DNA from: Candidatus Poribacteria bacterium
GTDB lineage: Bacteria; Poribacteria; WGA-4E; WGA-3G
Length of the DNA stretch: 64,000 nucleotides
Assembly: GCA_965197475.1 (NCBI GenBank)
Contig: CBDANF010000003.1
Coordinates: forward strand, 576,001-640,000
Reading direction: 5' to 3'
The notes beneath the pieces are model-generated. The model saw only the letters and a list, made by a program, of their open reading frames with translations, searched no databases and was not told the DNA's origin. A program made the translations under genes and the position numbers. Numbering within the stretch: position 1 is the first letter of the stretch; the number at the start of each line of letters is the position of its first letter. Positions 44,935 through 47,329 of the stretch are shown one piece after another.

Positions 44935-47169
44935 ATGAAAAAGATTTTATACGCAATCATAACAACACTGCTCATAACACTCATAACCACACCTAGCATC
45001 ACCGCCCAAGACCATACGGAATTGGGTCTACCCAAAGGTGCTATAGCACGGTTTGGGAAAGGGGGGAAATCGGGTGATATTGCGTATTCGCCAGATGGTG
45101 CCAAGTTCGCTGTGCCGTGCAAAATCGGCATTTGGATATACGATGCAGAAACAGGAGAAGAGCTTGACCTATACACTGAACATACGGATGCGGTTAGGAG
45201 TGTTGCTTTTAGTCCGGATGGAAACACAATCGTCAGTGGGAGTCATGACAAAACTGTTCGGTTGTGGAACGCAAATACGGGAGAACAACTACGCATACTT
45301 GAAGGTCATTGGAACTACGTTTATAGTGTTGCTTTTAGTCCGGATGGAAATACAATCGCAAGTGGGAGTTATGACAAAACCATCCGGTTGTGGAACGCAA
45401 ATACGGGAGAACAACTACGAACACTTGAGGGGCATCGGAGTTCCATTTTTAGTGTTGCTTTTAGTCCGGATGGAAACACAATCGCAAGTGGGAGTTATGA
45501 CAAAACCATCCGGTTGTGGAACGCAAATACGGGAGAACAACTCCAAACAATCAACACATCGTCCTTAGAGATTTCATTTAGTCCAGATTGGACTATGATA
45601 GCAAGTGCAGGTTTAGACTATTCTGTTCGGTTGTGGGACGCAAAAACGGGAGAACAACTACGAACACTTAAGGGGCATCAGGGTGGGATTTCAAGTATCG
45701 CCTTTAATCCTAAAAACAACATCATCGCAAGCGGGAGTTGGGATGGCATTTATCTGTGGGACGCAAAAACAGGGAAACATCTCCAAACACTTGAAGGGCA
45801 TAATGGTTGGACCAACACCTTAGCTTTTAGTCCGGATGGCAACACCCTCGTCAGTGGGAGTACGGATTCTACAATTCGCCTATGGGATGCAAACTCAAGG
45901 AAACATAAACGCACAATTGAAGGATATACGAATAGGTTCGCAGGTGTCGCTTTTAGTCCGGATGGTAGCATACTCGCAGGTGGCGGTTCAAGAGATATCC
46001 GATTATGGGACATAAAAACGGGTGAAAAACTCAAAACGCTTACCAAGACTGGAGGCTCGGTCTATGACTTGTCATTTAGTCCAGATGGCGATATGATCGC
46101 AAGTGTCGGTGATTCACCAGTCACCGTTCTGTTAGATGTAAACACCACAGAAGTTATCCATAGAATAAGCACGAATTGTAAATGGCTTAATTGTGTCGCA
46201 TTTAGTCCGGATGGCAAGTTAGTCGCAAGCGGTGGTTCAGGTGTATTCTCAGACCTCGCTATATGCAACGTAAGAACAGGGAAACTTCACCGTAGAATTT
46301 TGCAACATACGAGGTTCCTCAATAGTGTCGCGTTTAGTCCGGATAGCAAGACGATCGCATGTGGGAGTCCGGACAGAGTCATCAGGATATGGGATGTAAC
46401 ATCGAGGAAACTCCTTCACACATTTAAAGGACATACGGCTAATATCAGAAGTATCTCATTTAGCCCGGATGGTAACACGCTCGTAAGTGGCAGTGGGAAC
46501 GAAATTGATGGCGACTTCACCGTCAGGTTGTGGGATGTAAAATCCGGGAAACTTTTACACACCCTTCAGCGGCATACGAGTTACGTCAATAGTGTTGCTT
46601 TTAGCCCGGATGGCAACGTCATCGCAAGTGGAAGTAATGACACACACATTCGGTTGTGGGACGCAAACAAGGGGCTGCATCTACGCAAACTTGAGGGGCA
46701 TAAGGGACCCGTGCTCAGTATATCTTTCGGTAATGATAATCGCACGCTCGCAAGTGGGAGTTCTGACGGCACCGTGCTGGTCTGGGACTACAGATCCGGT
46801 GCTGATGGGATTGATGTGGGGGAGCCGTTTTCCGTTGAGGCACGTGGTAAGAAACTTGTCACACTCGGTCAGATAAAGCGTAACCAACTGTTCCAAAACT
46901 ATCCTAACCCCTTCAATCCTGAGACGTGGATTCCGTATCAATTGGCATCACCTGTGAATGTTAGTATCTCTATCTATACTGAAGATGGCAAGCTGATTCG
47001 GACGTTAGATTTAGGAGATAAGCCTATCGGCATCTATCAAGATCGTGACCGTGCGGCTTTTTGGGATGGTAGAAACGAGAATGGAGAAAAAATCGCCAGT
47101 GGCGTATACTTCTACACTCTCACCGCAGACGATTTCACTGCAACGCGCAAGATGTTGATACGGAAATAG
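44935..47169 (+). CDS. Secreted WD40-repeat protein with a C-terminal FlgD-Ig/sorting-type domain
   Basis: Many [19 protein letters not shown] repeats; QNYPNPFNPETWIPYQL...WDGRNE.GE...SGVYFY...TRKMLIRK. Confidence 0.92.
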   Translation: MKKILYAIITTLLITLITTPSITAQDHTELGLPKGAIARFGKGGKSGDIAYSPDGAKFAVPCKIGIWIYDAETGEELDLYTEHTDAVRSVAFSPDGNTIVSGSHDKTVRLWNANTGEQLRILEGHWNYVYSVAFSPDGNTIASGSYDKTIRLWNANTGEQLRTLEGHRSSIFSVAFSPDGNTIASGSYDKTIRLWNANTGEQLQTINTSSLEISFSPDWTMIASAGLDYSVRLWDAKTGEQLRTLKGHQGGISSIAFNPKNNIIASGSWDGIYLWDAKTGKHLQTLEGHNGWTNTLAFSPDGNTLVSGSTDSTIRLWDANSRKHKRTIEGYTNRFAGVAFSPDGSILAGGGSRDIRLWDIKTGEKLKTLTKTGGSVYDLSFSPDGDMIASVGDSPVTVLLDVNTTEVIHRISTNCKWLNCVAFSPDGKLVASGGSGVFSDLAICNVRTGKLHRRILQHTRFLNSVAFSPDSKTIACGSPDRVIRIWDVTSRKLLHTFKGHTANIRSISFSPDGNTLVSGSGNEIDGDFTVRLWDVKSGKLLHTLQRHTSYVNSVAFSPDGNVIASGSNDTHIRLWDANKGLHLRKLEGHKGPVLSISFGNDNRTLASGSSDGTVLVWDYRSGADGIDVGEPFSVEARGKKLVTLGQIKRNQLFQNYPNPFNPETWIPYQLASPVNVSISIYTEDGKLIRTLDLGDKPIGIYQDRDRAAFWDGRNENGEKIASGVYFYTLTADDFTATRKMLIRK

Positions 47170-47295
47170 TATCAAATGACCATAGGATAGCTGGAAGGCT
47201 GATGTTTATTGGCTTCCCAGCGATCGTTGATGAGTGGGTTGCGTTGGGATCGCGAGCATCCTCTTTGAGAAATGATGCGTTTAGCGATAAACGTG
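47169..47295 (-). ncRNA. Candidate structured ~125-nt RNA at the element end
   Basis: Downstream of a consensus promoter; four consecutive stems readable by eye (CGTTTA/TAAACG, GCATC/GATGC, GCGATC/GATCGC, CTGGGAAG/CCTTCCAG). Confidence 0.4.
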
Positions 47296-47300
47296 TCTAA

Positions 47301-47329
47301 AGTATAGCAAAACCAGTAGCGGTTGTCAA
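47301..47329 (-). promoter_or_regulatory. Outward-facing consensus sigma70 promoter inside the element
   Basis: Minus strand TTGACA-17bp-TATACT. Confidence 0.75.

Follow-up and report, generated by a model that had tools for sequence, protein, structure and literature searches.

The window analysed here is a 64,000-nt stretch of the Candidatus Poribacteria contig CBDANF010000003.1 (positions 576,001 to 640,000), and it carries a whole insertion sequence (IS)-like element of 2,016 bp (49179–47164, minus strand, ATAG...CTATTT) with two open reading frames (ORFs) for DUF1670 family proteins. An initial annotation of the window had drawn attention to an outward promoter, followed by a possible guide RNA, at one end of this element. 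The best overall explanation, which we hold tentatively and at somewhat short of an even chance, is that this region is the right-end module of the two-gene DUF1670 element, with an outward promoter that reads across the right end and a cis-acting end, and with no guide. From the sequences compared we infer transcription from this promoter, protein binding at the right end and a role for the promoter at joined ends. In the mechanism proposed, a selected sigma-70 extended –10 promoter would fire outward, sharing the direction of the ORFs. Its transcript of ~137 nt would begin with a 5′ hairpin domain that varies and continue with a conserved 3′ part of ~95 nt, made up of CTCA, a variable pentamer, a long hairpin and the terminal repeat. 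The 3′ part would have a second, cis-acting function as DNA, most probably in binding the DUF1670 proteins. Once right and left ends were joined, in an excised circle or a tandem copy, the promoter would become a strong promoter for ORF A–ORF B; in the integrated state it would make a run-off transcript only.

The promoter is located at 47301–47329 on the minus strand (TTGACA at 47329–47324, a 17-nt spacer and TG-n-TATACT, with the –10 hexamer at 47306–47301). As the initial annotation had stated, it lies past both ORFs, with 68 nt between it and the ORF B stop, and points outward. The outward non-coding stretch was also confirmed, but its length is 137 nt from the –10 and not ~125 nt. Both hexamers, a spacer in the 16–18-nt range and the TG of an extended –10 at –15/–14 (47309–47308) are present, and with a score of 11/12 the site was the best of nine promoter-like sites in 46900–49500. 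Shuffles of this segment gave 3.5 ± 1.9 such sites per 2.6 kb, which is the argument for a chance promoter-like sequence without function. We consider this hardly credible, given the 11/12 score with TG and the retention of the site in 78 of the 79 delimited full-length relatives, from many genomes, down to about 70% DNA identity. Among these 78 the –35 is TTGACA in 51, TTGGCA in 16, TTGATA in 10 and TTGACC in 1; the –10 is TATACT in 75, the TG is found in 77, and the spacer measures 17 nt in 64, 18 nt in 13 and 16 nt in 1. Column conservation reached 0.94 for the –35 and 0.98 for the –10, versus 0.70 for the spacer and 0.64 for the next 20 nt. As the hexamers are conserved and the spacer and neighbouring positions vary, the promoter has been kept by selection. 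The –10 also keeps within a narrow range of distances from the element end: 136–138 nt in 68 relatives, 140 nt in one and 104–108 nt in nine. The promoter is present also in a subfamily that targets a palindrome resembling repetitive extragenic palindromic (REP) sequences, so that its role is independent of the host gene described below.

Comparison of copies within the same genome (three contigs, 5.7 Mb) set the boundaries of the element. We found 19 copies with 90–100% identity, sharp common boundaries and unrelated left flanks; these sharp ends, together with empty sites, bear out the initial proposal that the stretch is the end of a mobile element. Identical ends at many loci, inverted ends and empty sites are the general properties of insertion sequences. 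On the minus strand, from 49179 to 47164, the order is left terminal repeat, weak promoter-like site, ORF A, ORF B, a 68-nt spacer, the promoter and 137 nt of non-coding sequence. The left terminal repeat ATAGTTTGTATCAAATGACC (49160–49179, minus strand) has a 13-bp core, GTATCAAATGACC, that is inverted at the right end, and the conserved inverted ends extend over 13–20 bp. The right terminal 18-mer is GGTCATTTGATACTATTT (47164–47181, minus strand), and its last 6 nt read AAA TAG on the plus strand, closing the host gene. The end had been placed at 47169; an end close to that position was correct, but because the last 6 nt are the Lys-stop of the host gene, its exact position is 47164.

The host gene in the window (44935–47169, plus strand) encodes a WD40 protein and ends in a type A sorting domain of the type IX secretion system (T9SS), with a TIGR04183 score of 37.8 bits at the C-terminus (cut-off 23). 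The target flank (47140–47163, minus strand) is antisense to the final codons of this gene (...T R K M L I R). Nearly all copies have a right flank of this kind, antisense to the end of a gene with such a domain at its C-terminus, and the orientation of the element is always antisense to the host gene. The original Lys-stop (AAATAG) is left behind at the left flank (49180–49185, plus strand), and left flanks end in YYAYTT, its reverse complement. At 27 unoccupied paralogous gene ends of the same genome, which were used for the empty-site comparison, YYAYTT is directly followed by the codons, and therefore insertion takes place inside the final Lys codon, with TT at most as duplicated bases. 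Since the last bases of the element (CTAT+TT) rebuild AAA TAG, the host protein is unchanged, as read directly from the sequences. A nucleotide profile detected 45 T9SS gene ends in this genome, 18 of them occupied by the element or a derivative and 27 empty. Lys-stop is restored in every insertion, which leaves the host proteins intact. No orthologous empty site was obtained through the left flank, which lies in a gene of a multi-copy sigma-WD40 family; the locus in G022 is not an ortholog. The neighbouring gene (49360–52158, plus strand) encodes the N-terminus of an extracytoplasmic function (ECF)-type sigma factor fused to WD40 repeats, and its family is large and multi-copy in the genus (matches in 39 of 40 genomes, up to 15 scored matches each).

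The 137 nt downstream of the promoter are predicted to fold stably. For the window RNA together with its flank the folding energy is –36.8 kcal/mol (z = –2.96 vs. shuffles), and for 41 unique sequences, which are related and not independent, the mean z was –2.42, with 63% below –2. The initial claim of a promoter directed outward over a folding non-coding stretch thus held, and the promoter is conserved as such. Single-sequence folds share two parts. The first is a 5′ hairpin domain (47249–47288, minus strand; ATCGC / GCATC-loop-GATGC / GCGAT), which differs between subfamilies and is missing from a 1.9-kb subfamily. The second is a long 3′ hairpin, GATSGYTGGGAAGC / 12-nt loop / GCMTTCCAGCTATC; in the window it is imperfect and spans 47186–47225 (minus strand; GATCGCTGGGAAGC / loop CAATAAACATCA / GCCTTCCAGCTATC), it shows sequence conservation, and short non-autonomous copies still have it. 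The annotation had also described a third stem with a 22-nt loop. The palindrome GCGATC...GATCGC and the loop are present at 47253–47220, but the stem is not conserved; in the minimum-free-energy fold its 5′ arm pairs with the upstream ATCGC, in competition with the 5′ domain, and it is lost in many relatives, wherever the 3′ arm is GATGG.

Covariation in the stems, which had been anticipated among homologous elements, is weak. RNAalifold applied to 33 diverse sequences returned only three invariant pairs and almost no consensus structure. A 32-pair model taken from the window copy had 75.4% of its cells paired vs. 73.2% in shuffles, with double changes at 7 pairs vs. 7.3. In the 3′ hairpin, 695 of 854 cells (81%) were paired across 61 unique ungapped sequences; uncompensated changes were common (26 C/T, 14 C/C, 12 A/C) and clear compensation was seen at one pair only. 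These data bear on a rival explanation, in which the module makes a stand-alone structured non-coding RNA of ~130 nt that binds the DUF1670 proteins or shields the element from host read-in and so tunes transposition, without any target specificity. The selected promoter, the fixed 136–138-nt length, the mean fold z, the proportion of paired hairpin cells and the lack of a conserved small ORF (an AUG after AGAGG opens 17, 10 or 6 codons in different copies, as read directly) all agree with such an RNA. The near-absence of invariant pairs, the double changes at shuffle level and a 5′ domain whose structure is not conserved across subfamilies do not. Neither does the lack of a terminator-like site after the non-coding stretch, nor that of an Rfam family: Rfam 15 at E ≤ 5 gave only a chance snoRNA match outside the region, and whether it holds a bridge RNA model was not checked. 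Relatives in other phyla, moreover, lack the module altogether. On balance we rate a stand-alone RNA as rather unlikely, with perhaps one chance in five or slightly better.

These relatives were found through the exact 18-nt right end, which occurs in records titled Bacteroidales, Ignavibacterium, Melioribacter, Caldimicrobium, Nitrosomonas, KSB1, Cloacimonadota, Chloroflexi and Zixibacteria; an identical end across phyla suggests cross-phylum spread of one element family. Among 97 stretches with this end (L151–L247) DUF1670 frames were present in only 23; shortened derivatives or contig ends may account for the others. Where the identical 18-nt end accompanies a DUF1670 pair in L190 (Bacteroidetes), L203 and L204 (Ignavibacteriales) and L219 (Zixibacteria), only 70–130 nt lie beyond ORF B, occupied by a GC hairpin and AT-rich sequence or by almost nothing. 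A scan that does not cover Bacteroidota promoter types found no sigma-70 site in L190 or L203. The flanks are nevertheless of the same kind, a T9SS sorting-domain end closed by the AAATAG of the element. TIGR04183 scored 48.7 bits in L190 and 43.3 bits in L203 (cut-off 23), while the flank of L219, the translation of which contained stops and N, was read by eye only. As relatives without the module land on the same target, target choice does not need it, and the promoter/RNA module is most likely an accessory of the Poribacteria lineage and not core insertion machinery.

This bears directly on the guide function that had been proposed. The 22-nt loop CCAACGCAACCCACTCATCAAC (47226–47247, minus strand) contains CAACGC and, after the conserved CTCA, the variable pentamer TCAAC (47230–47226). 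We confirmed that ATCAAC and CAACGC/GCGTTG recur in the adjacent flank (47163–47140), and also the caution expressed at the time that 6-mers may match by chance: in shuffles the mean longest match between the RNA and a 60-nt target was about 6.5. In its developed form, modelled on bridge RNAs or on the guide tetranucleotide of IS608, this rival states that the pentamer and/or the hairpin loop AATAAACATC pairs with the target ...AATCAACATC..., as guide RNA or internal guide DNA, and biases the choice of T9SS end. The CAACGC half showed no covariation with the target. In 76 same-target insertions this position reads CAACTC in 22, CAACGC in 21 and CAACTT in 16, and complementarity to GCGTTG gave z = 0.8 against permutation. 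Matching k-mers were at chance level; 3 of 17 copies tested exceeded 95% of shuffles, each with a different, non-recurring match.

The ATCAAC/TCAAC half gave a weak association. Nowhere does the conserved 3′ part vary more than at the pentamer after CTCA, and the identity of this pentamer with flank positions +6 to +10 exceeded permutation globally (p = 0.0016, n = 97; p = 0.0022, n = 110) and within genomes (p = 0.0008 for 49 insertions; p = 0.0035 for 56 insertions in nine genomes), with identical-flank rows counted once and non-T9SS flanks excluded. Only the matching register gave a signal (z = 3.2; |z| < 1.5 at other shifts). The signal comes mainly from the element's own genome (p = 0.01), where a TCAAC flank adjoins 6 of 10 TCAAC copies and 0 of 7 TTAAT copies; without this genome the within-genome p was 0.038, and then 0.11 after 13 more insertions. 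In addition, TCAAC flanks are used as often by GAAAC copies (7/16) as by TCAAC copies (15/28), and TCGGC copies are found on T[AT]ACC only (5/5). Subfamilies therefore differ in target preference, but by no simple identity rule, and subfamily-specific preferences of the proteins would yield the same weak association.

Further results concern the same rival. A target weight-matrix scan of right ends was not above shuffles (mean z = 0.19), with the best match in the hairpin loop in 41 of 80. The palindrome-targeting subfamily (G060, G038 and G047; L079–L093; proteins about 79–80% identical) inserts at the centre of the REP-like palindrome GAAACCGAGTTTT...AAAACTCGGTTTC and not at T9SS ends. It has no consistent complementary segment, since G060 has AGCTAG where G038 and G047 match with AACTCG, and L050, a 326-bp copy with the right end of this subfamily, sits on a T9SS end. 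A two-loop RNA complementary to both target and donor is not present at the right end; the pentamer shows identity and not a two-strand bridge. What still favours a guide, beside the pentamer statistics, is that, apart from helix-turn-helix (HTH) motifs, no domain for catalysis or target reading could be recognised in the proteins. Taken together, a bridge-RNA-like specificity RNA is unsupported and we find a guide very improbable. The same low probability attaches to the proposal that the DUF1670 pair is a new class of site-specific transposase or recombinase, of no known catalytic fold, that in Poribacteria recruited a promoter-driven right-end RNA, whose pentamer and/or loop pairs with the T9SS-end target and biases which end is used; if true, nucleic-acid-assisted choice of target would have arisen a second time, independently, in insertion sequences.

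The conserved 3′ part can be understood as DNA. Right-end DNA was present in 53 of 61 relatives, and many partial matches in relatives start at the last ~95 nt of the right end. Two copies of one non-autonomous element, 455 and 457 bp long and located at different sites (L075 and L078), match the full element over no more than about 90 nt at the left and the final ~95 nt at the right. The motif ATCAA is common to the target (TATCAACATC), the terminal repeat (GTATCAAATGACC) and the pentamer region (CATCAACGAT), as would be expected for sites of one DNA-binding protein, and in the palindrome subfamily the place of the pentamer region is taken by TCATTTGAT, a 9-nt copy of the right repeat. The 3′ part thus most likely comprises subterminal sites for the element's own DNA-binding proteins, with binding predicted from these shared motifs. 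A stricter rival takes the conservation to be purely that of DNA binding sites, with the promoter only blocking or countering read-in from the host gene and with no role for RNA or joined ends. Besides the shared ATCAA, the 9-nt copy and the right-end part kept by non-autonomous copies, the constant antisense orientation to the host gene is in its favour. On the other side, the promoter is kept also where the flank is a REP-like palindrome and not a gene end, the fixed promoter-to-end distance is left unexplained, and binding is only predicted; we judge this account unlikely.

The favoured reading combines an outward promoter with a cis-acting end. A junction-activated expression switch was the other option raised in the initial annotation. 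If formed, the joint would read ...GATACTAT(TT) joined to ATAGTTTGTATC..., and ORF A would lie about 100 nt past the right end, so that a promoter reading across joined ends into ORF A is geometrically sound and plausible. The weak promoter-like site of ORF A itself (TTGTAT-17-TATACT; 49146–49174, minus strand; read directly) is below the threshold of the promoter scan. Its –35 had been thought to be completed by flanking bases, which is not the case: TTGTAT (49174–49169) is wholly inside the element, within the terminal repeat. The poor –35 leaves room for a stronger upstream promoter after end joining.

As to expression, contigs from four sponge metatranscriptome runs of one study cover the element along its length, including 47164–47322; these are contigs only, possibly with DNA. 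Contigs end at 47294 and at 47322, with 29 nt in common; these ends are taken to be assembly-graph breaks. No right-end/left-end joint was seen among the loose ends listed from the metatranscriptome, a listing that leaves out 42 others. A joint query against metagenome contigs gave 0 matches; a 47-nt right-end control also gave 0, and therefore that collection is uninformative on joints.

Several points weigh against an outward promoter acting across joined ends. The metatranscriptome contigs give no transcript start or end, strand or level. No circle or tandem joint was detected, and only 1 of 159 genomes of the order has an abutted right/left join, in which the right end is an 18-nt remnant. 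The promoter is complete and would be active when integrated, unlike the classical split junction promoter, and its fixed 137-nt spacing and the stable fold could mean a function of the RNA itself. A pure read-through role does not explain the within-genome association of pentamer and target (p = 0.0035). Finally, the scan by which L190 and L203 lack a sigma-70 site does not extend to Bacteroidota promoter types. The sole joint mentioned above (G102:C1:247724–247751; L115, L248, L269) consists of the left end of a full element abutting the 18-nt right-end remnant, with GGTTATTTGATACTATTT directly followed by ATAG....

ORF A (48278–49090, minus strand; likely start ATG at 49078 after GGAGG) and its paralog ORF B (47397–48281, minus strand; 4-nt overlap with ORF A) both match DUF1670 (PF07900) with E-values of 4e-62 and 1.2e-61 and scores of 209.9 and 208.3 bits (gathering cut-off 25), and they are 35% identical to each other. 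Scans of both against Pfam and NCBIfam gave DUF1670 and HTH families only, with no DEDD/RuvC, Tnp, DDE, HUH or TnpB domain, and sequence searches of the Protein Data Bank (PDB) returned only matches at E > 0.1. The predicted structure of ORF B (mean predicted local distance difference test, pLDDT, 86.9) consists of helices and two strands with a putative winged HTH (residues 128–192) and a sigma-region-4-like HTH (193–245). Foldseek against the PDB gave no match at E ≤ 0.001, and a wider fold search returned HTH domains only (Z ≤ 6.4) and no RuvC-like match. Thus none of the known catalytic classes (DDE, HUH, serine, tyrosine, DEDD) was recognised by Pfam, NCBIfam, PDB or fold search, although the fold search barely covered the N-terminal 125 residues. 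PHROGs gave weak regulator matches only. Weak sub-threshold matches of ORF B were to Pfam HTH_29 and HTH_23/28, families that are common in IS630/Tc1-mariner transposases. An alignment of 38 diverse members showed invariant A144, H197, K198, H220 and Y228, nearly invariant R185 and D190, and the motif LPxRGxxHDxGxxxTHK...HSxxxVDRY. The family comprises about 1,017 clusters at 50% identity and is patchy in the phylum (37 of 121 genomes positive, with 1 to 22 matches each); among 14 control genomes, Methanosarcina acetivorans gave the sole match. Fused double DUF1670 proteins of ~520–580 aa exist (P0183, P0239, P0261; also a 579-codon open frame in L247 and a 585-aa one in G000), as do triple ones of ~930–950 aa; double and triple examples are among P0133, P0135, P0141, P0143, P0183, P0239 and P0261. 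Such natural A–B fusions are the only indication that ORF A and ORF B may act jointly.

Short non-autonomous copies measure 69, 326, 369, 455/457 and 559 bp. The smallest, L052 (G015), is a miniature of 69–72 bp at a canonical T9SS gene end and is hardly more than two terminal repeats forming the hairpin TATGAGTTAAACTCATA. In L099–L101 (G099) matching changes in the left (GTCTCATATGACC) and right (GGTCATATGAGAC) repeats indicate that the two ends co-evolve. The 559-bp internally deleted copy (L044/L097; G024:C1 ~638250–640800) occupies the orthologous locus of a congener, at the same site and between the same two neighbour genes, and therefore the insertion is older than the split of the two genomes. 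Two copies of the element's own genome (L015, C2:1160513–1162566; L016, C3:845184–847208) have an identical 60-nt left flank and different right flanks, one of them not of T9SS type, which looks like recombination between copies or duplication. Plasmid sequences searched by tblastn with the element proteins gave no match.

The surrounding element is more remarkable than the promoter that had been flagged. It encodes two HTH-only proteins with no recognisable catalytic domain, its 18-nt ends are identical across Poribacteria, Bacteroidota, Ignavibacteriota and Zixibacteria, and it enters the last codon of T9SS cargo genes and rebuilds their Lys-stop, with two fifths of the detectable ends occupied. 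A literature search for DUF1670 or PF07900 found no description (ISfinder and paper supplements were outside the search), and the family of elements appears undescribed. Its mode of movement could reveal new transposition chemistry, and the promoter module offers a handle on whether RNA, joined ends or proteins alone control the element.

Insertion sequences with promoters that point outward from their ends are known. Outward or junction promoters are found in IS911, IS2, IS30, IS21 and IS10 (pOUT), and in Tn916 circularisation couples a promoter to distal genes. As in these systems, the promoter near the end of the DUF1670 element reads outward and, after joining, would drive the element's own genes. 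It differs from the IS911 type and Tn916 in that its two hexamers are found together 137 nt within one end, which makes it complete before any joining, and in that no joint was observed. The element resembles IS630/Tc1-mariner in having short inverted ends, paired DNA-binding HTH domains and what appears to be a 2-bp duplication; however, no DDE_3 domain was found, the duplicated bases are TT at most and not TA, the two paralogous proteins are separate, and a far longer target is recognised with greater specificity. Like IS200/IS605 elements (the guide tetranucleotide of IS608, the right-end RNA of TnpB), the DUF1670 element inserts immediately 3′ of a short constant sequence, has a subterminal hairpin and would make a right-end RNA that runs into the flank. 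In contrast to these, no HUH TnpA or TnpB was found, the ends are inverted, and nothing points to single-strand chemistry.

For the bridge RNA of IS110/IS1111 elements the reference system is IS621 (PMC11208160, PMC11208158). In contrast to these elements, the DUF1670 element has HTH proteins in which no DEDD/RuvC or Tnp domain was found, inverted ends of 13–20 bp, no two-loop RNA, absent or weak target covariation and a module that is dispensable in relatives. In common with IS110/IS1111, it places a non-coding stretch beside the recombinase genes or their counterparts at the element end, inserts site-specifically into a repeated sequence with at most two duplicated bases, and carries a promoter that could act across joined ends.

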